From NCBI GenBank assembly GCA_963847625.1, contig CAWKAR010000049.1, forward strand, positions 44,061-108,060: a stretch of 64,000 nucleotides of DNA. Reading direction: 5' to 3'. This document shows, piece after piece, positions 5,133-26,190 of this stretch; within the stretch, counting starts at the first letter, position 1, and every line of letters begins with the position of its first letter. Source of the stretch: a candidate division FCPU426 bacterium (GTDB taxonomy: Bacteria; Oederibacteriota; Muellerivitia; Muellerivitales; Muellerivitaceae). The notes under the pieces are model-generated. The model worked only from the letters and a program-made list of their open reading frames with translations. It was not told the origin of the DNA and ran no database searches. The position numbers and the translations under genes were made by a program.

Positions 5133-8100
5133 TTCACCACCGCTACTTTCAGGATCTGGTGGAACAAGCCTGACTTGATCTCGATGAGGTAGATGCCCGA
5201 GGCTACGACGTTGCCGTTTTTATCCTTCATGTCCCAAGAGGTTTTTTCCGCCGTGCCGGCCGTGGCGGGCGGGACTGAGAGAGAACGGATCAACCTCCCC
5301 GCGATGTTATAAATGTTGAGTTCCACGGACCCGCTGGAAGGAACCTCGTAGGATATGCCCAGGGTCTGCCCCAAGAGAGGCCGGACCAGGTTGGCGTCGA
5401 AGACCATCTGGCCGGATTTTACCGTCACCACCGTCGGGGGGGGCTTGAGGGTGGTCGCGTAGGCGTGGTTGGAATTGGAACTGGTCCCCACGGGGACGGA
5501 ATAAACCGCCCGGGCCACGTAGAAATAAGTGACTCCGACACTCAAACCGGTGTTGTTGAACACCGTGACGGGCGCGAAGGCGGTGTTGTAAAGGGTGGTC
5601 ACGGGGGTGGTGAGGGTCGCGCCGAAGGAATTGGTCCGGTAGATGGCGTAACCCGTCACGATTCGGCCCAGGTCGTTGGCGGGGGTCCAGGTAAGCTGGA
5701 TGGTATTGGTTCCCGTGCCCTTGGCGGCCAGGTTTGTGGGGGGATTGAGGTTGTTTTGGCTGCTGGCGGCCGTGACCGTCACGGCAACGCTCTCGTGCAC
5801 GCCCGGAAGGGCCTGTCCCGTCTCGTCGATGGCAGTGACCGTGAAGGTGACGGAAACCCCGTTGGTGCTGGGGACCAGCCACCAGGTTTGGGCCGTCAGG
5901 ACGGTCGTCGGGGTCCCGCCGGAGGAAATGACAACCTGGTACTCGGAAACGGGCAGGCTTCCGCCCGAGGGCGGCGCGGCGGGGGCCCAATCGATGAGGA
6001 TTTGTTCGTCACCCGGCAAGGGGGTCAAGCCCGTCGGGGCGGGGGGCGGATTGGAAGCCCCGTCCAGGATTTCCGTTGAGGGAGGACCCTCATGGCCCAC
6101 GGCATCGAGGGCTTCCACCTCGTAGCCGTAAAGCTGGCCCAACGCCACGGTGCTGTCAATCAAAGATGAAACGCCCGAACCCACGACCGTCAGGGGCGAG
6201 GCCGGGTTATAGGTTCCCGAAGAGTTTCGGCGATATATCGCGTATCCGGTAACGGTGAAGGAACTGGTGGCCGGGGCGGACCAGGAGAGCGTGACTTCGG
6301 TGTTGCTGGAGGCGGAGGTGACCGCGGGAGGGCTTAAGGCAAATGGATAGCCCGTCACCGGGGCCGAGGGGCCCAGGCTGGTCACGCTGTTCGCGTTGAC
6401 GGCGTAAACGAGGTACACGAAGGTGGAACCGTCGGCGGCGGGGCTGTCCACGTAGGTCACTGGTACGTTCGCCGCCGTCACGGAGCTGGAGACGGCCGTC
6501 AGGGGGCCCGCGTTGCGGGTGATGACATACTGGTTCACGTTCACGGTGTCCAACGGGCCGTTGGTGAGCCAATGCAGGGTGACCGCGTTGTCGCCGTCGG
6601 ATTCCCTGAGGCCCGTGGGCGCGTTGGGCGGACGGGCGGCCGTGGTGAAGACCGTGGCGCTGGCGCTGTGGCAAAGGCCCCCCACGTTGTCGACAGAAAC
6701 AAGGTAATAATAATATTTGGTTCCATTCGTCACCGGGGCGTCGGTGTAGGTGCCGCCGGTTGGAACCGTGGCGAGGAGAGTGTAACCGGTGAATTGGGAC
6801 GTACTGCGGTACAGCTGGTAGCCGGTCACCGGGGCCCCGACCACAGGGTCCAACCAGGTGACTGCCACCAGGGCGTTCTGGCCCTGGGCCGAGAGGCTGC
6901 TGGGCGGATTGATATTTCCCGTGCTCGGCATGCCCGTGACCAAGGCGGAATTAGCGCTGATGTGGAGCCCGCTGACGATCCCGGAGGTGTCCTCGGACAC
7001 CAGCCAATAGGTGTAAGTGGTGAGATCCGCCAGGCCCATGTCGACGAAACCCGTGATGGTGGAGTTGACCGTGGCGACCAGGATCGTCACCCCGCTGCCG
7101 ACCGCGGTGCGGTAAATTTGGTACGCTCCGATGGGAAGGGTGCCCGGCGATCCAGGCAGCCAGGTGATCTGGACTTCCTGGTCCCCGGCATAGAGGGCCA
7201 CGCTTACCGGCGCGCCAGGCTGGACCAGGGGCTGGGCGGAAACCGGGGCCGTCTGGGCGCTCAAGTTACCCTGCACGTCCACCGTCTGCAGGGCATAGGT
7301 GTAGGTCGTCCCGTTCGTGACCGCGTTATCGGTGTATGCCGCGGCCGTGTAAGGCAGGAAGGTGAGCGGCGCCCCGGTCAAGGTGACCGAGTTGGAACGG
7401 AAAACGTCGTAGCCGGACACCGGGTAGGTGGTGGCGGCGGGGGCGGTCCAGGACAGCGCCACCTGGTTGTTCCCGGCGGTGGCGGCCAGGAAAACCGGCG
7501 GGTTGGGTTGGCGGAAAGCCGTGACCGGCGCGGCCAGGGCCGTGTTGAGGGGGCTCATGAGGCCGCCCAGCTCGGCCTCCACCAGGTAATAGTAGGCCGT
7601 CCCGTCCGCCGCGGTCGTGTCCACAAAAGTGGTGCTGGTGGAGGGAACGCTGGTGATGGGGGTGTAGGCGGCGGTGGCCGGGCCGCTTCCCGTAATGGGC
7701 CCGTTCGCGCGGTAGATATTGTACCCGGTGATGGCCTGGATGGCCGGGTTGGCGGCCCAGGTGAGGCTGACCGCGGCCTGGGTGGGGCTGACGCCGGACT
7801 GGGCCAAGAGGCTGGCCGGGGAGGATGGCCCGATGAGGATGGTGATGGAATTGGAAGCGGGGCCTTCCCCGGTGGGGTTGGTGGCGGAAATCTGGAAGGA
7901 ATAGGTCTGGCCGAATTGGACGGGCCATTGGAACGTGACGGGCATGGCGAAACCCGCCGTGACCGGCACGGCCTGGATCGAGACGGATTGGTTGTAATTC
8001 AGTTGGCGGTAGATGTTGTATTTCGCCACGTCGCCGGCGCCGACAGTGTTCCAATTCAACACCACCGACACGTTGTCGGGCAGGAGGTTGACCGAGTTGA

Positions 8101-13785: not shown

Positions 13786-16700
13786 TTAACGACTGATGGA
13801 AAGATCGAGCTTGTGATAGCTGTAGTTCAGGGGGTAAGAATGCCGGAAGGCTTCAACCATGACGGTATAATCCCCTTGAGGGAAGCCTGAAGAGGGGACA
13901 GCCCACGCGTAGCTATAAGGAAACGTATTGGTTTGGATCAAGTGGTTTGGGCTGGTGTCCAACACACCCATTACAGCCGATGAATTATCCTGTACAAAAT
14001 ACCAATCCATCTCCGAGTCATTGCTGTAAAGTAAATTAATATCCAGGGTGAGGGGGTTGCCATTGCTGTCCTTTTCCACATAGGTGCTGTTATTGAGGTT
14101 GGGATAACCCGGATATTCCTCCGTATAAAAATTGGCGTTGTTCCCGGTATTTCCGGGGTAACGGTACCAGATATTGTCGGTGGGCCCGTTGATAATCGTA
14201 ACGCCACTTACAATTTTAGGGGTCGTCGTGGTGACGGCGCCGTCCACCACCAGGTTGATGGTGCTGGGCTGGGAATACTGCTCATTGGGGCTGTCGCAGT
14301 AAAGCGCCACCAAAGGCATCTGGGTGATATGGGCGGTGCCGGTATAGTTTCCACCGTCCAGGAAAGTCCTGAGCATGAAAACCAAGGCGGTTTTTCCCAG
14401 TTGGGCGGTTCCAACATCGGGGGAGATGGCCAGGCCGGATTCCACAACATAGGCCACATTTCCGCTTTTATCGGTTATTTGAACCACCCCCGTTCCGTTG
14501 TAAGTGGCGGAACTGGTGTCATCGTAAAAATAGCGGGAGAGGCCGCCCACCTGTGGAACAGTAAGGGTGGTGCGCAACGTAGTACCATAAGGGGCGGTGC
14601 TCCACTCAGTGGTCGTCTGGGTGGTATTGATAGCCCAGGACCTGGTGCAACTGACCGACTGGGCCAGGGGATATGCGAAAATGGAGTAGCAAGTGACACC
14701 CAAGCCCAGAAGGGTGGCGGAATCGGCGTTGCTTTGATGGTTGAAGGTGCTGTCGAAAAAGGAGGTACAGCCGTACTGCCACGCCCTGCTGGTTAAATTC
14801 CGCCCGAAACCGTTGCAGGAGGTCGTCGTCCCGGCCGTGTTGACCACGGGTACCGAACCGTAGAGCTTGCGGTAGAAGGTTGAGTTGGAGATGTTTGCCC
14901 CTGCCACCGGAAGGTTGCCGGTGCTGGACCAGGTGGAATACATACTGTCGGGATAAAGCTCGCCCAGCCAGGACTTTTCATACCAGGTATCGTTGGTATT
15001 GGAAATCACGCGCATGTAACTGACGGGATCATTGTAGGGGATAATTTCAGCCGCTCCGGTCAAATTGGTGGTGGAGGTTGTCAGGTAGGGTGTTTGATTC
15101 AAGGTGACTCCCCCCTGGAAAGGCTGTTGGTCGGCGCCGAATTCCCCCCCAAACCCGTAATAGTAGTAACTGTACCCGTTCATCGTGGTCCAGATGGCAG
15201 TGCAGTTCAAAAGGCCCTGGCGGATCATTTGGTAAAAGCGGGGGGCATCGATGAAATTGGAGTCCGCTGGCGGGGTGCCTCCGGATGAGGCTGCCCCTTC
15301 CCATCCGATAAAATCACCCGCCGCTCCGAAACCCGTATAACCATCATGGTTCATGCCGACATATGTGCCGGTGGCAGCGCCATCCTTGAACCACCAGTTA
15401 TAGCCATTGGGGCCGATGACGGCACCCGCGGTGGCATCCGCGGCCCCCTGCCATCCCTCCTTGACATCCTCGTAAGGGCAGTGGCGGGGGTCCCCCAGGA
15501 ACTGATACCTTTCGGTATAGGGCGGCGGGTAAGCGTCGCCGCACCAAACCCAGGTCCTGGAAAGGTTGGGGCTGTTGTTGACCGGAAATCCGGAGGTTGT
15601 ACTGGTGCCGAAGCGAGTCTCCAGGGTATGCACACCGGGCGGAAGGTTGATCATGAGGAGCCAGCGCGTTGTGTTCTTAGGCCCGTTGCCCGTGGTGCCG
15701 CCTATATCGTCCCAAGGGTTCCCTCCCGTCTCTATAGGGCAAGGGATATACTCGGCGCCGTAAAGCCGGGCGGTGGATGCCAAGCCGGTAGTGGATGTGG
15801 TGTGCATGGGGCAGCGGTAAGGGGTATTGTAAAAAATAATCTCGGTCCCGATTTGGGTCCCGGTTGAGGGAACTGGGACAACATTGTAATAAGAGGTAGC
15901 TGGATAAGGAGCCCCAAAGGAAAAGGGCGTGTTTAAGGCAACAGCTTGGGAACTGTAAGCGGTGCTGCTGTTTCCGGTTCGGGCGTTCACACTGATGTTG
16001 GTGGCTTTAATCACCTCGGGGATGTATACATTCATGACAGGCACGAGCGCCCCCGCGCCGTCCGGATAGGTGGCGTCCAAATTGGCATTCATATTTTCCA
16101 GGCCGTCGATATAAGAATAAACCCGGAAATGGACCTGCGTGGTATTCGTCGCCCCGGAGAAGGGATAATAAAGGTTCTCCGGATGGGTCACCACACGGTA
16201 ACACGGCTCGCCGGAGCCGCTGGTATTGGCCGGGTCCTTGGCGGCGTCCGAGTAGTTGCGCATGGGGGGGATGGGCAGCAACTCGCCGTGCAGGTTGACG
16301 ATGAGGGCGTTCTCGAAGGACGCGGGAGTGGAAAGCATGCCCTCGATCAGCATGCGCTCGCTGATCTCGGTGATCGGATAGCCTGAATATAAGGGCATGG
16401 TCAAATTGTTTGCCGCCGCTGTGACGGCTTGGTACATGGTCAGCTCGTCCGGGTAGCGCATGGAATTGTTATCCTTATCCGCGACCGCGTAGTTGGGACA
16501 GCCGGTGAATATGGCGTTGGTATAGTGGACAGTTCCGTCCAAGTTGAAATTGCCGTCCGCTGGAGCGCCGAAAGTAACGTCTGAGGAGAAAAATTGCGTC
16601 ACCCCGCCGCCATCCGCCGTGTCCATGGGCGTCGTTCCGGGGTAAAAATAAATATAGGGGAGGATGCCCCCCATGGTGGCCGAAGCCGTGCTTTGGTAGA

Positions 16701-17412
16701 AATTGAGGTAAGGGATATATTGTTGGTCCCGCCCGTAGGAGGAACGCGTGATGTAATGGGGCCGGATGAGAAGCCCCGGGTCCCTTGTTTGAATATCATC
16801 AATGATGCCGCGGAAAGTTGAAAAAAGGGCCGGTTCCTGGGTCCACCAGGCCGGGGTATTATTGATGGCCAGCACGTAGACATCCATCACCTGGGACGGG
16901 TATTGTTGATTGACGATCGTCCTTAATTGGCCGCCCACCTGCGCCAGCAGGTCCCCGGGCGCCCCGGGGTTCTGGTCCGACGCGTATTTCCAGATATTCA
17001 CAAAGACCATGCGCGCGTTGGGGTCGTCGGCCACGTGGTTGACCTCGATCTGGCGCAGGTAGCGCCAGTTGCCGTTGGAGAGGCGGTTTCCGCTCAAGGG
17101 ATTGCCGGGGTCGACGTTGGAAAGGCCCGTATCCACGTTTTTGTCGGTGGTCAGGACATTGTTGTAGAGGGACCCGTCGGTGTATCTGTCGAGTATATTG
17201 ATATTTGTTTCCTTGCCGCTGACCAGGGACTTGAGTTCCTCGAACATCTGGATGGCTTTTTGCGTGGCGTAAGATCTGTCACTGGTCTTGACGGTCTGCT
17301 TGGCCATGTAGGAACGGGCCAAGATGACCGAGGAGGCCACAGACCCCAAGATGGCCACGGCGATCAGAAGCTCGACCAGCGTGTAGCCTTTTTGATCCAG
17401 AGTTTTTTTCAT
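13786..17412 (-). CDS. Giant prepilin-type protein (PilV/GspI-like N-terminus plus ~1000-aa extension)
   Basis: Class III signal KG|YTLVELLIAVAILG, followed by a long Tyr/Thr/Gly/Asn-rich extracellular region. Confidence 0.85.
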   Translation of the reverse strand: MKKTLDQKGYTLVELLIAVAILGSVASSVILARSYMAKQTVKTSDRSYATQKAIQMFEELKSLVSGKETNINILDRYTDGSLYNNVLTTDKNVDTGLSNVDPGNPLSGNRLSNGNWRYLRQIEVNHVADDPNARMVFVNIWKYASDQNPGAPGDLLAQVGGQLRTIVNQQYPSQVMDVYVLAINNTPAWWTQEPALFSTFRGIIDDIQTRDPGLLIRPHYITRSSYGRDQQYIPYLNFYQSTASATMGGILPYIYFYPGTTPMDTADGGGVTQFFSSDVTFGAPADGNFNLDGTVHYTNAIFTGCPNYAVADKDNNSMRYPDELTMYQAVTAAANNLTMPLYSGYPITEISERMLIEGMLSTPASFENALIVNLHGELLPIPPMRNYSDAAKDPANTSGSGEPCYRVVTHPENLYYPFSGATNTTQVHFRVYSYIDGLENMNANLDATYPDGAGALVPVMNVYIPEVIKATNISVNARTGNSSTAYSSQAVALNTPFSFGAPYPATSYYNVVPVPSTGTQIGTEIIFYNTPYRCPMHTTSTTGLASTARLYGAEYIPCPIETGGNPWDDIGGTTGNGPKNTTRWLLMINLPPGVHTLETRFGTSTTSGFPVNNSPNLSRTWVWCGDAYPPPYTERYQFLGDPRHCPYEDVKEGWQGAADATAGAVIGPNGYNWWFKDGAATGTYVGMNHDGYTGFGAAGDFIGWEGAASSGGTPPADSNFIDAPRFYQMIRQGLLNCTAIWTTMNGYSYYYYGFGGEFGADQQPFQGGVTLNQTPYLTTSTTNLTGAAEIIPYNDPVSYMRVISNTNDTWYEKSWLGELYPDSMYSTWSSTGNLPVAGANISNSTFYRKLYGSVPVVNTAGTTTSCNGFGRNLTSRAWQYGCTSFFDSTFNHQSNADSATLLGLGVTCYSIFAYPLAQSVSCTRSWAINTTQTTTEWSTAPYGTTLRTTLTVPQVGGLSRYFYDDTSSATYNGTGVVQITDKSGNVAYVVESGLAISPDVGTAQLGKTALVFMLRTFLDGGNYTGTAHITQMPLVALYCDSPNEQYSQPSTINLVVDGAVTTTTPKIVSGVTIINGPTDNIWYRYPGNTGNNANFYTEEYPGYPNLNNSTYVEKDSNGNPLTLDINLLYSNDSEMDWYFVQDNSSAVMGVLDTSPNHLIQTNTFPYSYAWAVPSSGFPQGDYTVMVEAFRHSYPLNYSYHKLDLSISR

Positions 17413-17437
17413 CTGTTTTTCCCCAAGCCATCCCCGC

Positions 17438-18865
17438 CTACAAATTGGGAATGGCCAGCAGCATCTTTCGCTGGCTAATGTCTTCCCGGTAATTCCCCAC
17501 CAGCTTTTGGGCTTTCACCACCAAGTCCGGGTTGTAAAAAATTTGGCCATAGTTTCCGGCGCTACCGTTGATCGTGATGGTCCCGGGGGTGGTACCATGG
17601 TAATAGGGCGATCCCATGATGACCGACCCTTCGATATCACAACCGGCTCCCACGGTCAGGTTCCCCGTCACGAAAAGGATGCCGCCCCAATGGCTGGGCT
17701 GCAGGCTGCCGGTACTTTGGTTAAGCACCAGGTCCCCGTTGACGATCAACACCCCGTAAGCGCCGGTTGTCACTGATTGGTCGTTTCTTCCGAGTTCGTC
17801 ATAAGGGGATGGATTCGCCGGCCCGTAAGTGACGCTTCCATCAAAGAAGCAGAGTTTCCATTCGCTTGTAATATACATAGTGGTAGAGGCGTTTCCCTGG
17901 TAATCCGATATGTTTTTAAGGTCCCCCAGGGACATCCCGAAGACACTGCTGGCGTCAAGACAGGTGTAGTCGGTTGTTCCCCAGCAGGTGACCCCACCCT
18001 GGAGGTTCACTCCGGGAGTGGCCCCATTCGGAAGGTTGCAAGAGTTGGGCAAGGGTGTATTAGTAATGGTAGGGGTAGAGGTGATCGTGGGGGTATAGGA
18101 GATTGTGGGGGTGTATGTGTTGGTCCTAGTGTAGGTAAACGTGAATGTAAAGGTATTGGTCGGCATCCCACCGACCGTTTGCGTCATGTTGGGAGTGTTC
18201 GTTTTGGTGGGGGTAAATGTTATTGTGGGAGTTTCCGTTTTGGTGGGTGTGCAGGTATGGCCGTTACTATCTTTACAGGGAACAGGGGTGTTCGTGCGGG
18301 TGGGAGTGCACGAAGGGGTGAACGTGGGTGTACAAGGCACCTTAAAAGCAATCGAGGAGCTGACTGTACAATTGGAATCGTCGCAATAGGGCTCGCGATT
18401 ACCGGTAGTAGTATCACAACGTGTTCTGGCAAGAAAAATAATGGATACCGCGGCGTTGGGAATGGTGAGTGTTTGGGTCGTGGTAGTCATATTGTTATTA
18501 TTATTGTTAGTTTGGGAAAAATAAGCTTGTAATTGGTTCGAAGCATTGCAGGTGGTGGTGGTTGTACCGCTATTCCCATACCAGATGATATTTCCCCCGC
18601 TGTCCTTAAAGCCTATGGCGTAATAAACGCTCGTGCAGGAAGTGCCGATGTTTGTTAAATAAGCGGACACATCTACCGTGTCATTTTGCGCGCCGCAGGT
18701 GTCGCTAAGGGTAATGCTGGAAACACTCATTCCAGTACAAGCGGCATATAAGCAGGAAATATAATTAAAATAGGCAAAAACCGCCATTATTCCCGCCAGG
18801 CCAAACAAGGGAAAAAGGCTTTTTTTAAAATTGATCCTAAAATAGTTTGTAAATTTTTTGTCCAT
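17438..18865 (-). CDS. Secreted Cys-rich/PT-linker protein ending in a PilX-type beta-helix C-terminal domain
   Basis: Signal-like N-terminus, TPT linker, then GVLIVNGDLVL…GGILFVTGNLTV…GSVIMG…IFYNPDLV repeats typical of PilX-like C-termini. Confidence 0.65.
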   Translation of the reverse strand: MDKKFTNYFRINFKKSLFPLFGLAGIMAVFAYFNYISCLYAACTGMSVSSITLSDTCGAQNDTVDVSAYLTNIGTSCTSVYYAIGFKDSGGNIIWYGNSGTTTTTCNASNQLQAYFSQTNNNNNNMTTTTQTLTIPNAAVSIIFLARTRCDTTTGNREPYCDDSNCTVSSSIAFKVPCTPTFTPSCTPTRTNTPVPCKDSNGHTCTPTKTETPTITFTPTKTNTPNMTQTVGGMPTNTFTFTFTYTRTNTYTPTISYTPTITSTPTITNTPLPNSCNLPNGATPGVNLQGGVTCWGTTDYTCLDASSVFGMSLGDLKNISDYQGNASTTMYITSEWKLCFFDGSVTYGPANPSPYDELGRNDQSVTTGAYGVLIVNGDLVLNQSTGSLQPSHWGGILFVTGNLTVGAGCDIEGSVIMGSPYYHGTTPGTITINGSAGNYGQIFYNPDLVVKAQKLVGNYREDISQRKMLLAIPNL

Positions 18866-18933
18866 CTTTTTTCTTTTCCCGGCCTTTCCTTTTGAAAACT
18901 TTCAAGAATCCTTTCTTCCGCCCCAGGCCGTTT

Positions 18934-19887
18934 TTAAGGGCTATGCATGCCGACCACCCCGAAACAGTTCGGAGCATTGGCCGAAATGTAAGTTTGGGTG
19001 TTGCTCAGGGTTACCTGGTTTTTAATATTTTGCACGTAAATGGCCCCCGCGACCCCGTTGACGTTGCCGGGGGTAGGGCACGGCATGACAAGGCTTAATT
19101 TTCGGAACTCGGTGCTGAATCTGGCGGTAGCCACCACCGAGTTGGGGGGCTGAGTCATGGATACGGCAAAATTGCCGGTCGTTGGATCGATTGATTTATC
19201 CATGCGTTTATAGACGTAACCGGTGCTGACAATGTTCCAAACATACCCGGACCCGTCAGCGTATTTAAATATTCTCTCGCCGGTGACATCATGAACAGCG
19301 TTGGGATCGAAAGCCCCGGTGCCCTGCTGTTTCACCTCGTATCTGGCCCAATAAAGGGCATTGGCGGTTACGGGACTGTCGAGGGGATATTCCTTCACGA
19401 TGCCGATGGAAGCATCGATGGTATCGGAAAGCTGGGCGTTGGCCGTGTTGTTTTGAGGGCTAAAAGCCTGGTCAATGTTGGTGTAAGGATAAACGGGTGT
19501 AGGAGTCGAGCCGGGTATTACGGGGGTAACCACGGCGCCGGCTACGAGGCCTCCATTGGAGGTTCTTCGGGAAAACCAGCCGAGGGTGTCCACTAAACCG
19601 GCCCTGGCCACATTTTCCGCCTCGCCGACATAGAGCATCCGTTCCTTGGACTGGCGGGAGGAATTGGAAACCAGCCTGTACCCGACGGTCATGAGCATAG
19701 TGGCGACCAGCATGAAGATGGCGGCCATGACCAAGGCTGAGCCTTTGTGATCCTTGAGGTATAGGATAAACCGGTTGAAGGGTGAAAAAGTTTTCCGGTT
19801 CCCCCTGGAACGCGAAACCACGAAGAAATCCCAAAAAGCTTTACCGAAGTGGGAAAAAGAAGGGTTTTTGCGCCGGCGTGGACTCAT
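18934..19887 (-). CDS. PilX/GspK-like pilin (N-terminal part)
   Basis: KG|SALVMAAIFMLVATMLM lacks E5, as PilX does, and is followed by AENVARAGL. AAGGAG RBS precedes the ATG. Confidence 0.75.
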   Translation of the reverse strand: MSPRRRKNPSFSHFGKAFWDFFVVSRSRGNRKTFSPFNRFILYLKDHKGSALVMAAIFMLVATMLMTVGYRLVSNSSRQSKERMLYVGEAENVARAGLVDTLGWFSRRTSNGGLVAGAVVTPVIPGSTPTPVYPYTNIDQAFSPQNNTANAQLSDTIDASIGIVKEYPLDSPVTANALYWARYEVKQQGTGAFDPNAVHDVTGERIFKYADGSGYVWNIVSTGYVYKRMDKSIDPTTGNFAVSMTQPPNSVVATARFSTEFRKLSLVMPCPTPGNVNGVAGAIYVQNIKNQVTLSNTQTYISANAPNCFGVVGMHSP

Positions 19888-20956: not shown

Positions 20957-21062
20957 GAGCCGCGGTCGTTATGAGAATTAAAAAACATAAAAATCTTTTC
21001 GCCACGGATTCAGGGGATACATGGGATGAACCCAAGACCCATCAAACCCATTCGCGGGAAAA

Positions 21063-21548
21063 CTACTTTTTTAACCAATCTTCCCGCGCGGAAATGCGCC
21101 TGACTTGGAGTTCGGGTTTTCCGAAATTCAAAAGCAGGCAAACCTCGAAACCCGTTGCCTTGAGGTAGTTCAGACACTGCGCATAATGCACATTATCCAA
21201 AGCCTGGACAGCTTTCAATTCCACAAGAACTTTTTCTTCCACCAGCAAATCGGCAACATATTCCCCGACCAACACATCACGATATTTGATTTCCACTGGT
21301 TTTTGTTGCGTCACTTTTACGCCGATATGACGCAATTCCACAGCCAAAGCGTTCTCATAAACTTTTTCCAAAAAACCGCTTCCCAAGGTGTTCATGACCG
21401 TATACGCGCAACCGATGATTTTTTCGGTGATATCATTGAATGCGAATGTTTGGGTTGAAATATTTTCTTGGTTTAAATCCACCCTTTTATCCCCATGTTT
21501 CTTGGCTACTACGCCGTTCTCTTCAATGTTTTTTTTCCTGTTGTACAA
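21063..21548 (-). CDS. GxxExxY protein (PD-(D/E)XK nuclease fold)
   Basis: LGSGFLEKVYENAL, ADLLVEEKVLVELKA, AQCLNYLKAT, LLLNFG. The start may be downstream of 21548. Confidence 0.92.
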   Translation of the reverse strand: MYNRKKNIEENGVVAKKHGDKRVDLNQENISTQTFAFNDITEKIIGCAYTVMNTLGSGFLEKVYENALAVELRHIGVKVTQQKPVEIKYRDVLVGEYVADLLVEEKVLVELKAVQALDNVHYAQCLNYLKATGFEVCLLLNFGKPELQVRRISAREDWLKK

Positions 21549-21737
21549 AAAATTGCGTTTTTTTCTTTGCCTTTATCCATCCCCTGCATGCCGTGGTTAA
21601 ATGCCTTTTTGTTAGGTTGAAATTTATCCCATATTTCCCCTGCATCCGTGGCTAAAATTCCATTTCCTTTGGGTGGTTTTTCTTTGCTTAAACCTATCCC
21701 ATGTATCCCCCTGAATCCGTGGCTAGCATTCTTTGTC

Positions 21738-22043
21738 TCAGCTTGTCTCGTAATCCACAGCCGCGCGGGTGTCGGCGATCTTCTGGACGAACCCGGCCGC
21801 CTTCTGGTGTTCGGGATGGTTCTGGTATTGTTCCAGGTCTTCCCGTGTGCGGAAAGCCGAAACCAATACCACGTCGTAACCCGTCCCGGATGGTTCCACC
21901 TGGAATCCCACTTCCAATTCCTCGATTTGCGGGATGAAACCCCGCAAGGCTTCCAGCATATCCCGGAATTTCAAAGCGTTCTCATTTTTGGAGGCGCCTT
22001 CGGCCCGGTCTTTCAATTTCCACATCACGATATGCTTGATCAC
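21738..22043 (-). CDS. Dabb family stress-responsive A/B barrel protein
   Basis: IKHIVMWKLK…IPQI…YDVVLVSAF…YQNHPEH…AVDYE. Confidence 0.92.
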   Translation of the reverse strand: MIKHIVMWKLKDRAEGASKNENALKFRDMLEALRGFIPQIEELEVGFQVEPSGTGYDVVLVSAFRTREDLEQYQNHPEHQKAAGFVQKIADTRAAVDYETS

Positions 22044-22605
22044 TTTAAACCCCTTCTATTCCTTATATGGGTGGGTTTCTTTGCCTCAAACCGTCCCATG
22101 AATCTCCCTGAATCCTTGGCCACTTCGCCTTCTGAAGAAGACACATGTTAAAACACTTTGAGCACCGTTTGCCATAGTGGTTCTTTACACACCTGTCCAA
22201 AATAAACCTAGCCACGGATGCATGGGATTCATGGGATTTAAAAACACAAATATTTAAAGCTTTTTTTATGGTCTATCCGAGTGCATTCCCTGAATCCGTG
22301 GCAAAGGACTTGGTTTTGCTTAACGCCTTTTAGATTAAAAAATTCCTGATTTTATTTATCTTTGTTACCTGGATTTTGTTTAATTTGAACAGCTATGGGT
22401 TCCTTACTTTCCAAAGGAAACCGCCTGCTCCTTTTTGGGCTTTAAACCCGGCTGGAAAAGGCCTAATTTAGCGGGCTTTTCCAAAGGCTCTATCGAAACC
22501 AGGATAAAAAAAATTAACCCCGCTCCACCCTTTGCTTTAAGGGGCGGGGGTGATTTTATAAAGTCACTTCCTTATAGTTAAGGATCAAACGGGGAGAAAA
22601 ATCAA

Positions 22606-23412
22606 ATGGGTTTGTTGAGCGGAAAGAAAGCTTTCATTTTCGGCGTGGCCAACGACCGGTCCATCGCCTGGGGCATCGCCCAGGCCTTCCACCGGGAAGG
22701 GGCCGAGCTGGGTTTCAACTTCCTGGGGGAGGCCTTGGAAAAAAGGGTCCGGCCACTGGCGGAATCGGTCGGGGCCAAGCTCATCCTTCCCTGCGACGTC
22801 TCCAAGGACGACCAGATCCAGGCCCTTTACCGCGAAGTGGAGAAAACCTGGGGAAAACTCGACATCCTGGTGCATTGCATCGCCTTCGCCAACAAGGACG
22901 AGCTCTCCGGCGCTTTTTCCGCCACCAGCCGCGCGGGTTTCCACCTCGCCCTGGACATCTCGGCTTACAGCCTGATCGCCATCACCCGCCCCGCCCTTCC
23001 CCTTTTCAACCCGGGCGGGAGCATCATCACCCTCACTTACTACGGCTCCGAGAAGGTCATCCCCAACTACAACGTCATGGGAGTGGCCAAGGCCGCCCTG
23101 GAAAGCTCCGTAAGGTACCTGGCCAACGACTTGGGGCCCCGCGGCATCCGGGTCAACGCCATCTCCGCCGGGGCCATCAAGACCCTGGCCGCCTCCGGCG
23201 TGGAAGGCTTCAAGACCATGCTGAAAACCTCGGAAGGATTGACTCCCCTGAAGCGTAACGTCACCCAGGAGGAGGTGGGCAAGACCGCCCTGTACCTGGC
23301 CAGTGATTTGGCCTCCGGTGTAACGGGGGACGTGATCTACGTGGATGCGGGCGCCAACATCATCGGAATGTATTTTAACGAGAAGAAAGAAGATGCTCCG
23401 CCGAAAGCTTAA
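22606..23412 (+). CDS. fabI: Enoyl-ACP reductase (NADH)
   Basis: GVANDRSIAWGIA, LDISAYSL, YNVMGVAKAALE, VNAISAGAIKTLAA. Confidence 0.97.
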   Translation: MGLLSGKKAFIFGVANDRSIAWGIAQAFHREGAELGFNFLGEALEKRVRPLAESVGAKLILPCDVSKDDQIQALYREVEKTWGKLDILVHCIAFANKDELSGAFSATSRAGFHLALDISAYSLIAITRPALPLFNPGGSIITLTYYGSEKVIPNYNVMGVAKAALESSVRYLANDLGPRGIRVNAISAGAIKTLAASGVEGFKTMLKTSEGLTPLKRNVTQEEVGKTALYLASDLASGVTGDVIYVDAGANIIGMYFNEKKEDAPPKA

Positions 23413-23658
23413 AACCCAGCCGTGAATGACCCTTTCTTTCTATAAAATCCCTAAAAAATCTCTAGCCACAGATGCATGGGATTCAAGGGATTTATTTAAA
23501 TTCAAAATTGAGAATTTATAATGCATTCATGTGGTTTAGATGAATTTTTTGGCCCATCTAAATGCATCCCCTGAATCCGTGGCCAAGCCATGTTTTTGCT
23601 TTACGCCTTTTAAACTTAACCCCCTGATCTTAATTATCTTTGTTCCATGTATTTTGTT

Positions 23659-24033
23659 TTATTTGAAACTCCCGGCAGGTTCCCAAATCGAACAATAACT
23701 TCTGGTTTCAACCTTTTCCGCCGGGAGCTTTCGCAAGGTGATTTTCAGGGGTGTCTCGGAAAGAGCCATAGACTCTGCCGTGTGCGTTTTCAATGTTGCC
23801 CGTCCCCTGGGCGTGAATCCCAACCTGTTTGGCGCGAGCCCATAGTCCAGGTTCAATTCCTCGGAAGAAACCCTCTCAAAACGAAGCCGGTGGAAACCCG
23901 AGAAATCCAACGGCCGCCCCAGGTCCACGGCGAAGGCTTGAAGCTCAGCCGCCTGCTGGGGCCATTCCCTCTTCTCCAGGAAAAACATTTGGGTCAGCGC
24001 TAAAATTTCGGTCAATTCTTTTTTCCAACTCAT
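23659..24033 (-). CDS. Hypothetical protein
   Basis: 124-aa ORF with a G-rich RBS, directly downstream of radC. No family recognised. Confidence 0.6.
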   Translation of the reverse strand: MSWKKELTEILALTQMFFLEKREWPQQAAELQAFAVDLGRPLDFSGFHRLRFERVSSEELNLDYGLAPNRLGFTPRGRATLKTHTAESMALSETPLKITLRKLPAEKVETRSYCSIWEPAGSFK

Positions 24034-25701: not shown

Positions 25702-26190
25702 ATGTCCTTTACGTCTTCATCCACCTTAGTCCGGGAGGCTCCGCTTCCCTACGGCTCCAACCCCCTCGCCAACCCGGTTTTCGAGGTTTCCCTCAAGACA
25801 TCCGGAACCACGGGTCCCTTAAAAGACCTGCACAATGCCTATCGGCTGGTTCAAGCCCTCCTTCAATGGGAAATCCAGGGAAATTGTGTCCTCTTGGACT
25901 TCGCCCTATGGCCGCAAGGGGTTTTTGCGCGGGTCTCCCTCAAAAAGGGCTCTTCTCTTTCAGAATTCCTGGGGTTCCTCCGGGAAAAATCAACGCCCCC
26001 GGGCCGGCCGCCTTTGGATTATTGGGAGGATGAATTGACCTGGATTCGCCTTGTGCCGACGGAAAACCTGGAGGATTCGACCAACCGGTTTCTGCAAACC
26101 GCGGACCGGATCAGGGGGGAAATGGAACGTTCCCGCGGTTTTTCCCCCAGCCTCTTTTTTTTCTACCGGAATCCCCAATTGGGGAAATAA
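25702..26190 (+). CDS. Hypothetical protein, probably a degenerate Y1/RAYT transposase fold
   Basis: Strong AAGGAGG RBS. Motif order resembles RAYT, but the HUH and catalytic Tyr positions are substituted. Confidence 0.55.
   Translation: MSFTSSSTLVREAPLPYGSNPLANPVFEVSLKTSGTTGPLKDLHNAYRLVQALLQWEIQGNCVLLDFALWPQGVFARVSLKKGSSLSEFLGFLREKSTPPGRPPLDYWEDELTWIRLVPTENLEDSTNRFLQTADRIRGEMERSRGFSPSLFFFYRNPQLGK

Follow-up and report, generated by a model that had tools for sequence, protein, structure and literature searches.

Inverted arrays of short repeats around a GxxExxY-family nuclease gene point to a probable nuclease-and-repeat element

In this work, we analyzed a 64,000-nt stretch of contig CAWKAR010000049.1 (the window), part of the genome of a candidate division FCPU426 bacterium (G000), and specifically a gene of the GxxExxY nuclease family that lies between inverted arms of short repeated units. 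The arm sequence around such genes tracks the protein tree and gene-less copies of the arms occur in the same genomes; the GxxExxY protein therefore likely recognizes and spreads its repeats, as far as sequence comparison can tell. We favor, with a probability of about 0.55, the reading that gene and inverted arms constitute a nuclease-and-repeat element, whose protein would bind its own arm type, cut, and spread arms and gene-less inverted pairs of arms (doublets) by copy-repair, part of the copies being cargo of IS4-type miniature inverted-repeat transposable elements (MITEs). A widespread nuclease family of unknown function would thereby gain a specific, testable candidate substrate, and intergenic repeat families of at least 100 copies in many phyla would gain a likely cause.

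Results and discussion

Profile searches matched the open reading frame (ORF) 21063-21548 (-) to TIGR04256 (146 bits) and PF13366 (144 bits). The frame extends to a TTG at 21548; judging from the MDLNQ-like starts of the homologues L018, L020 and L027, the true start is likely the GTG at 21482. Residues E39, D78, E88, K90, Q102 and Y106 are invariant across 45 aligned homologues, and the structure model (predicted local distance difference test, pLDDT, 94) resembles PD-(D/E)XK enzymes at middling Z values (SwaI 8.2, BpuSI 7.9, Cas4 7.5), while a sequence search for solved structures returned no relative. By profile match and conserved predicted catalytic residues, the protein is a full member of PDDEXK_3. 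In part of PMC3424549 this family is listed with function unknown and multiple transfers, and the listing names no repeats, substrate or mobile role; the available text of bioRxiv 10.1101/2021.01.26.428298 mentions GxxExxY once, in an unrelated context, and that of PMC4679880 is uninformative on a link to repeats. Our literature searches, with subscription papers and supplements outside their scope, found no published description of a link between GxxExxY genes and repeats.

The association of gene and arms extends far beyond the window. Within the phylum, 88 matches were found in 26 of 41 genomes; the best 70, including the window's own, were used, and the 18 weakest, mostly fragments, were omitted. 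An inverted pair scoring above the shuffled maximum (27) bracketed 65 of these 70 genes (26 genomes). A wider set was obtained from a GTDB contig scan with the clade alignment (80 loci, one dropped for a short flank; L071 duplicates L045), and inverted arms were present at 70 of its 79 loci, in 13 named phyla including archaea (Methanobacteriota). Among the controls, the figures were 2 of 56 for distal flank pairs and 6 of 382 for small ORFs from G000. In a third set, from which 8 of 46 loci had been dropped as duplicates or split fragments, 28 of 38 loci had arms.

Furthermore, when arm labels were placed on the tree of the 70 proteins, 14 changes sufficed, compared with 38.0 for shuffled labels, and none of 200 shuffles was as low. 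Arm type tracks the protein tree, not the host; G024 alone contains four arm types. Inverted arms beside homologous genes, co-variation of repeat and protein, and empty sites in relatives (see below) had been proposed as checks in the preliminary description of this locus, and all three were found. The common unit across homologues is CRCNRAK at 8-10-bp spacing, with GGGAT as the variant of G000. In 72 of 73 rows, Thr19 of the protein goes with G as the fifth base of the unit, and likewise in 12 of 12 rows of a later set; columns 19-20 were picked after inspection of the data. Both residues fall in the first helix of the structure model. Phe/Tyr37 was also considered as a base reader and was rejected, as it follows the major clades only.

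The occurrence of gene-less repeats follows that of the gene. We scored 81 genomes of Planctomycetota with a generic three-unit pattern, counting repeats as abundant at 10 or more matches, and found them abundant in 32 of 43 genomes with the gene versus 3 of 38 without it. Within the phylum of the window, genomes rich in AAG-type repeats make up 21 of the 22 that have an AG-clade gene and 3 of the 19 that lack one (G000 has 1 such repeat). The arm type of the genome's own gene is present in 34-140 copies in four of five distant genomes: G044 holds 140 copies alongside one gene, and G042 holds 34 copies of its own variant, which is absent from four other genomes. Of 41 genomes, 15 contain the window's arm type, and G013 and G024 have 67-69 copies of it.

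These counts also bear on whether a RAYT (REP-associated tyrosine transposase, REP standing for repetitive extragenic palindrome) or another Y1 (HUH) transposase is what mobilizes the doublets, as in genuine REPINs (inverted REP doublets). In its favor, G000 has three Y1_Tnp genes, the window has a weak Y1-like ORF at 25702-26190 (score 0.87), and Y1 genes go with repeats overall in Planctomycetota (25/39 versus 10/42). However, repeat-rich genomes numbered 23 of 29 with Y1 and 9 of 14 without it when GxxExxY was present, and 2 of 10 and 1 of 28, respectively, when it was absent, so that GxxExxY goes with the repeats whether a Y1 gene is there or not, and Y1 adds nothing once GxxExxY is fixed. 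Besides, the ends of the three Y1 genes (GGGGTCAGGCC) are unrelated to the arms, and the arms are not palindromic. A Y1 mover is the least credible of the explanations considered here, and RAYT was rejected as the general cause on the grounds of the unrelated Y1 ends and the lack of a Y1 effect.

In the window itself, the nine repeat copies given in the preliminary description were recovered: eight match the three-unit pattern (three 9-bp units) with which copies were located, and the ninth has two units (Table 1). The copies at 21001 and 21696 do differ by one G, every copy is intergenic, no further three-unit copy was detected in the window, and the arms at 21001 and at 21575-21723 bracket the gene in inverted orientation, all as had been described. 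The pairs 22211/22275 and 23465/23556, taken to be gene-less hairpins, indeed fold as DNA well below their shuffled energies (-14.6 and -18.4 kcal/mol versus -7.0 and -8.4, standard deviation 2.5). In contrast, three single arms fold no better than shuffles (-0.8, -2.2 and 0.0 versus -1.6 to -1.9 kcal/mol). Since doublets fold and single arms do not, the arms are direct arrays of short units and not the REP-type palindromes that had been assumed. As to the weak copy over the start codon in Table 1, intact arms overlap the start codon in L018, L020 and L027. The three-unit match of the solo arm is at 22093-22120 (-); from its similarity to the outermost 5' arm, this arm is likely a local copy across the Dabb gene.

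Table 1. Features of the GxxExxY locus (positions in the window)
Feature	Position	Strand	Remarks
Arm 3' of the GxxExxY gene, three 9-bp units	21001..21027	+	pattern match
GxxExxY / PDDEXK_3 gene	21063..21482	-	139 aa from likely GTG start; single copy in assembly
Possible decayed arm over start codon	21477..21506	-	weak, by eye only
Third 5' arm copy, two units only	21575..21597 (approximate)	-	repeat family D3
Second 5' arm copy	21626..21652	-	pattern match
Outermost arm 5' of the gene, 13 nt past the Dabb stop codon	21696..21723	-	one G longer than 21001-21027
Solo arm and inner flank	22076..22120	-	45 nt 82% identical to 21679-21723; family D1
Left copy of 9-bp target duplication, GGTTCTTTA	22179..22187	+	
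210-bp IS4-family MITE carrying a doublet, ends CACACCTGTCC and CATAGCTGTTC	22188..22397	+	shared ends
Gene-less inverted doublet inside the MITE	22211..22302	.	arms 22211-22237 (+) and 22275-22302 (-)
Right copy of 9-bp target duplication, GGTTCCTTA	22398..22406	+	one mismatch
Gene-less inverted doublet after fabI	23465..23583	.	arms 23465-23491 (+) and 23556-23583 (-)
Decayed right part of the wrapper	23591..23667	+	80% identical, lacks full end and duplication

The family is genome-wide and not local to this locus, which the preliminary description had missed. We counted 118 copies of an 18-nt core in G000 at up to 2 mismatches, while the reversed genome yielded 15 with up to 3 mismatches allowed, which argues against a chance origin; 117 of the 118 fall outside long ORFs, and 79 stand in convergent pairs, that is, as inverted doublets (random mean 0.4, maximum 5 of 1000). 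The arm type flanking the gene has 92 exact matches. Genome-wide dispersal without enrichment near GxxExxY genes had been named as what would speak against a link between the two; the copies are dispersed genome-wide, but arms do flank homologous genes. A second gene-less family of the same unit type (CCGCCGAT) has 25 copies in G000 (e.g. C25:177433-177582 and C22:5182-5249), and arms of this type flank the stop-containing gene L044 in G013.

Many G000 doublets share outward flanks, whose ends are CACACCTGTCC and CATAGCTGTCC. This wrapper shows the 9-bp duplication (at most one mismatch) at 9 of 17 end pairs in G000, the window's 22188-22397 included and some pairs sharing an end, and at 5 of 7 complete wrappers in G001 (15 loci read). 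Three full IS4 elements (L173, L177 and L196; metagenomic, 1356-1485 bp, 9-bp duplications), whose NF033592 transposases score over the cut-off, start with the 17 nt of the wrapper's left end. Table 1 of PMC2266710 gives for IS4Sa the ends CA------T, duplications of 8-10 bp and a length of 1150-1750 bp; likewise, the wrapper has CA...TG ends in common with the 1356-1485-bp elements and a 9-bp duplication, an assignment made by ends, size and duplication, not by tree. The inner doublet and the nuclease gene carry no IS4 features, and IS4 explains only the wrapper in this genus. Probably, therefore, a doublet became inserted in an IS4 MITE in this genus, after which a DDE enzyme multiplied it. 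No doublet-free ancestor was present among the ends read. A likeness of G011 flanks to the wrapper, seen by eye, gave no match at E 0.001. In G000, at C13:137050-138649, a wrapper has been expanded to 1600 bp by an internal high-copy insertion sequence (IS), and its 9-bp duplication is still perfect.

It could be argued that the repeats spread only in this way, carried along by IS4-type MITEs and other DDE elements, with the nuclease as a bystander. The duplications and shared left ends described above, together with four IS4 copies in G000 with related but different ends (the assembly is 94% complete), agree with this. Nevertheless, the right part of the wrapper was found in 2 of 31 genomes of the family, the wrapper being confined to this genus, whereas the arm type is far more widespread; 32 of the 72 repeat clusters of G000 have no wrapper parts (40 do, 22 of them with both ends), 13 doublets read in G013 have no such ends, and cargo transport does not account for arms that flank the gene in 13 phyla. 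As a general account this is already contradicted, and was rejected, while it holds for the subset with IS4 ends; as the sole explanation we regard it as very improbable. IS4 hitchhiking accounts for part of the burst in G000, not for the whole repeat family. The suggestion that the empty hairpins are units moved by the nuclease is not supported for 22211/22275, which rides in the MITE, and is weakened by the MITE parts in the other clusters. Since an unrelated transposase can multiply a doublet that has landed in an IS4 MITE, copy number near to or far from the gene does not reveal the mover.

The history of the sites was read from relatives, in which the gene orders radC-ORF-fabI and Dabb-xth are conserved across the family. 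Thirty Dabb loci were compared, and 28 were scored, as two stop at contig edges. The Dabb-xth junction holds the full element in G000 and G001, other arm types without the gene in 9 genomes (judged by eye: 5 clear, 4 decayed) and no repeats in 17. After fabI, G013 has a full gene-carrying element, G006 one arm, and G000 and G001 doublets that by eye lie in opposite orientations; in G021, a gene-carrying element adjoins the same neighboring ORF as the fabI-side doublet. At several sites where G001 has repeats, G000 has none (6 shown); the two genomes, at about 75-90% in flanking genes, are too diverged for exact junctions to be read. Before mutS in G000 (C16:34028) there is a lone GAG-type remnant arm, at a place where G013 and G024 have a full element. 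Movement of the gene appears to be rare, and arms appear to remain where it has been lost.

Two traces fit copying: (i) in L020, 106 identical nt with a secondary insertion mirrored in both arms, and (ii) in G001, whose GxxExxY gene carries an in-frame stop, a 96-bp inverted copy (100%) of the gene's 3' end and arm 2.1 kb away (L170:4763-5031 and 7079-7277), which could be an assembly artefact. No RNA run containing window sequence was listed among public runs. Four public DNA runs hold 5-8% of the window's words with thin contig cover; the joints between 22241 and 23556 in their contigs are other doublet copies and hence give no reading on excision.

GxxExxY copies within one genome are at most 69% identical (94 pairs), and for 60 of 62 the nearest relative is in another genome. 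Matches were found in 7 of 72,556 plasmid records and none in a scan of viral contigs, and target duplications around 126 gene-carrying elements showed no excess over shuffled pairs, most insertions being old. Taken together, low same-genome identity, few plasmid matches and no excess of duplications indicate a gene that behaves like a RAYT and not like an IS.

The same data weigh on the idea of a classical transposon with terminal inverted repeats, in which the PD-(D/E)XK protein cuts fixed ends and the doublets are its MITEs. Inverted arms of iterated units resemble multi-site transposon ends, and close homologues (67-82% identical) occupy different junctions, as would be expected. Against it, the 126 elements showed no fixed outer end and no excess of target duplications, both of which old copies may have lost, near-identical copies within a genome are missing, and the plasmid and viral records are nearly empty of the gene; a lone PD-(D/E)XK domain is not known to have strand-transfer activity. 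We consider this explanation unlikely.

Another possibility is that the protein binds the arms but serves the host, as regulator, repair factor or chromosome organizer, or that the arms act as stems in the RNA and so prevent harm from an insertion within an operon; the doublets would then be footprints of lost genes plus hitchhikers, and not products of the nuclease. This is consistent with the lack of recent self-duplication, with long vertical persistence at the same junctions and with single-arm remnants where relatives keep full elements. It is also consistent with the placement in operon sense: the left arm has a sense stop close by at 100 of 123 loci (median 6.5 nt upstream) and the right arm a sense start at 111 of 125, counted with a crude ORF rule by which 55 of the 111 starts also fit an antisense stop. 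Mismatches of G-U type on the sense strand (137 versus 96) might suggest RNA stems, but a sense-strand C-to-T bias would equally explain them, and this confounded test was not counted as support. On the other hand, footprints would hardly yield the 140 copies beside one gene in G044, the G001 sites that are empty in G000 do not suit it, and the catalytic residues are invariant. We hold a host or RNA role to be rather improbable, although less so than the classical transposon.

Returning to the favored nuclease-and-repeat element, the following mechanism can be envisaged. The element would sit between co-transcribed genes. Its protein would bind duplex DNA at the tandem units of the arm type that belongs to it, and residues 19 and 20 of helix 1 may recognize the fifth base of the CRCNRAK unit. 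The E39/D78/E88-x-K90 site would cut the arms or DNA close to them; with another arm as the repair template, the arm and variable flank would then be copied by arm-primed strand invasion, not by cut-and-paste. Copy-repair would leave entry into new junctions without homology unexplained. From the sequence relations we infer that the nuclease may drive the spread of the repeats. It is tempting to speculate further that an undescribed class of selfish DNA has GxxExxY proteins as its enzymes. A PD-(D/E)XK nuclease of 140 residues would use its first helix to read 7-bp words in phase, cut at its own inverted arms and seed arms, doublets and sometimes the gene into operon junctions by copy-repair without a transposase. 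This proposal is tentative, and we lean against it in this full form; if true, it would explain why repeat families are dispersed in genomes of many phyla of bacteria and archaea, and specificity could switch by one or two residues.

Several observations weigh against the favored reading. Clear arms are missing at 5 of 70, 9 of 79 and 10 of 38 genes in the three sets, in which related genomes are not independent and most assemblies are incomplete. A rule for Glu/Gly20 held in 120 of 129 cases and dropped to 17 of 25 in the later set; after control for the tree, about 4 independent pairs agree with the residue-base link and about 0 oppose it (p 0.06-0.125), so that the link is not significant and is suggestive only. 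The correspondence between gene and gene-less repeats is likewise imperfect: G045 has its gene's two arms only and no dispersed copies, dispersed repeats are not abundant in 11 of the 43 Planctomycetota with the gene, the window's arm type occurs in G010, G011, G022 and G023, where no cognate gene was found, repeats occur in G020, G055, G056 and G062 without a cognate gene, and the CCGCCGAT family has no cognate gene in the G000 assembly. In addition, the low identity of same-genome copies indicates no recent self-copying of the gene, and the clusters with wrapper parts indicate that part of the local spread is likely IS4 hitchhiking, so that another enzyme likely moved many of these copies.

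Among known systems, REPIN/RAYT comes closest. In the portions of PMC3116915 and PMC5581495 that describe it, high-copy extragenic inverted doublets share their repeat with the flanks of a low-copy, non-duplicating enzyme gene, and both co-diversify. Compared with these portions, the GxxExxY repeats are likewise extragenic, enriched as inverted doublets and abundant in the genome of the gene, which is itself low-copy and not duplicating and whose protein co-diversifies with the repeat. In contrast, the enzyme is PD-(D/E)XK and not an HUH tyrosine (Y1) transposase, the arms are built from directly repeated 8-10-bp units and are not palindromes, the gene between two facing arms forms one half-open doublet, and it lies mostly at junctions from stop codon to ribosome-binding site, in operon sense. 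Of the RAYT/REPIN-like system put forward in the preliminary description, the relation of gene and arms therefore stands, through many phyla, the protein tree and the gene-less copies. Two defining features of RAYT/REPIN, the HUH enzyme and the palindromic units, are missing: the GxxExxY system works like RAYT/REPIN and is not a member of it. It would represent a second, unrelated enzyme class in such a partnership. Homing endonucleases also spread by cut and repair without duplication, and the ends of Tn7 and Mu are iterated binding sites in inverted orientation. However, GxxExxY genes have no intron or intein and their target is not an empty gene allele, and there is no DDE partner as in Tn7 and Mu.

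Other features of the window and genome

Profile matches identify the neighbors of the GxxExxY gene as xth, the Dabb gene, fabI and radC. The Y1-like ORF 25702-26190 (+), 162 aa long and located after lexA, has no Pfam or NCBIfam match and by eye no HUH motif; it is possibly an inactive RAYT-like protein. The three Y1_Tnp genes of G000 (C39:22987, C22:5849 and C24:100290) encode about 320-355 aa, and two of them adjoin the same unrelated repeat. At 13786-19887 (-), the window has three large ORFs of no assigned family; inspection by eye showed an N-terminal methylation motif of pilin type in one of them and a stalk rich in Thr and Pro in one.

Two further kinds of repeats were observed in G000. 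AT-rich heptamer runs (TTCATAA/TTCAAAA type) occur in many doublet spacers, e.g. 23495-23525 of the window; there are 15 runs of at least 3 heptamers (control 0), intermixed with other repeat families. A twin-hairpin element of 73-82 bp has 85 copies by pattern (control 9), e.g. C19:94423-94496 and C33:56561-56638, 79 of them with a 2-bp TG/CA/CG/TA duplication. It lies inside GxxExxY-type repeats in 33 copies and inside other palindromic repeats in other copies, and it is also present in G001, G011, G016, G021 and G128.

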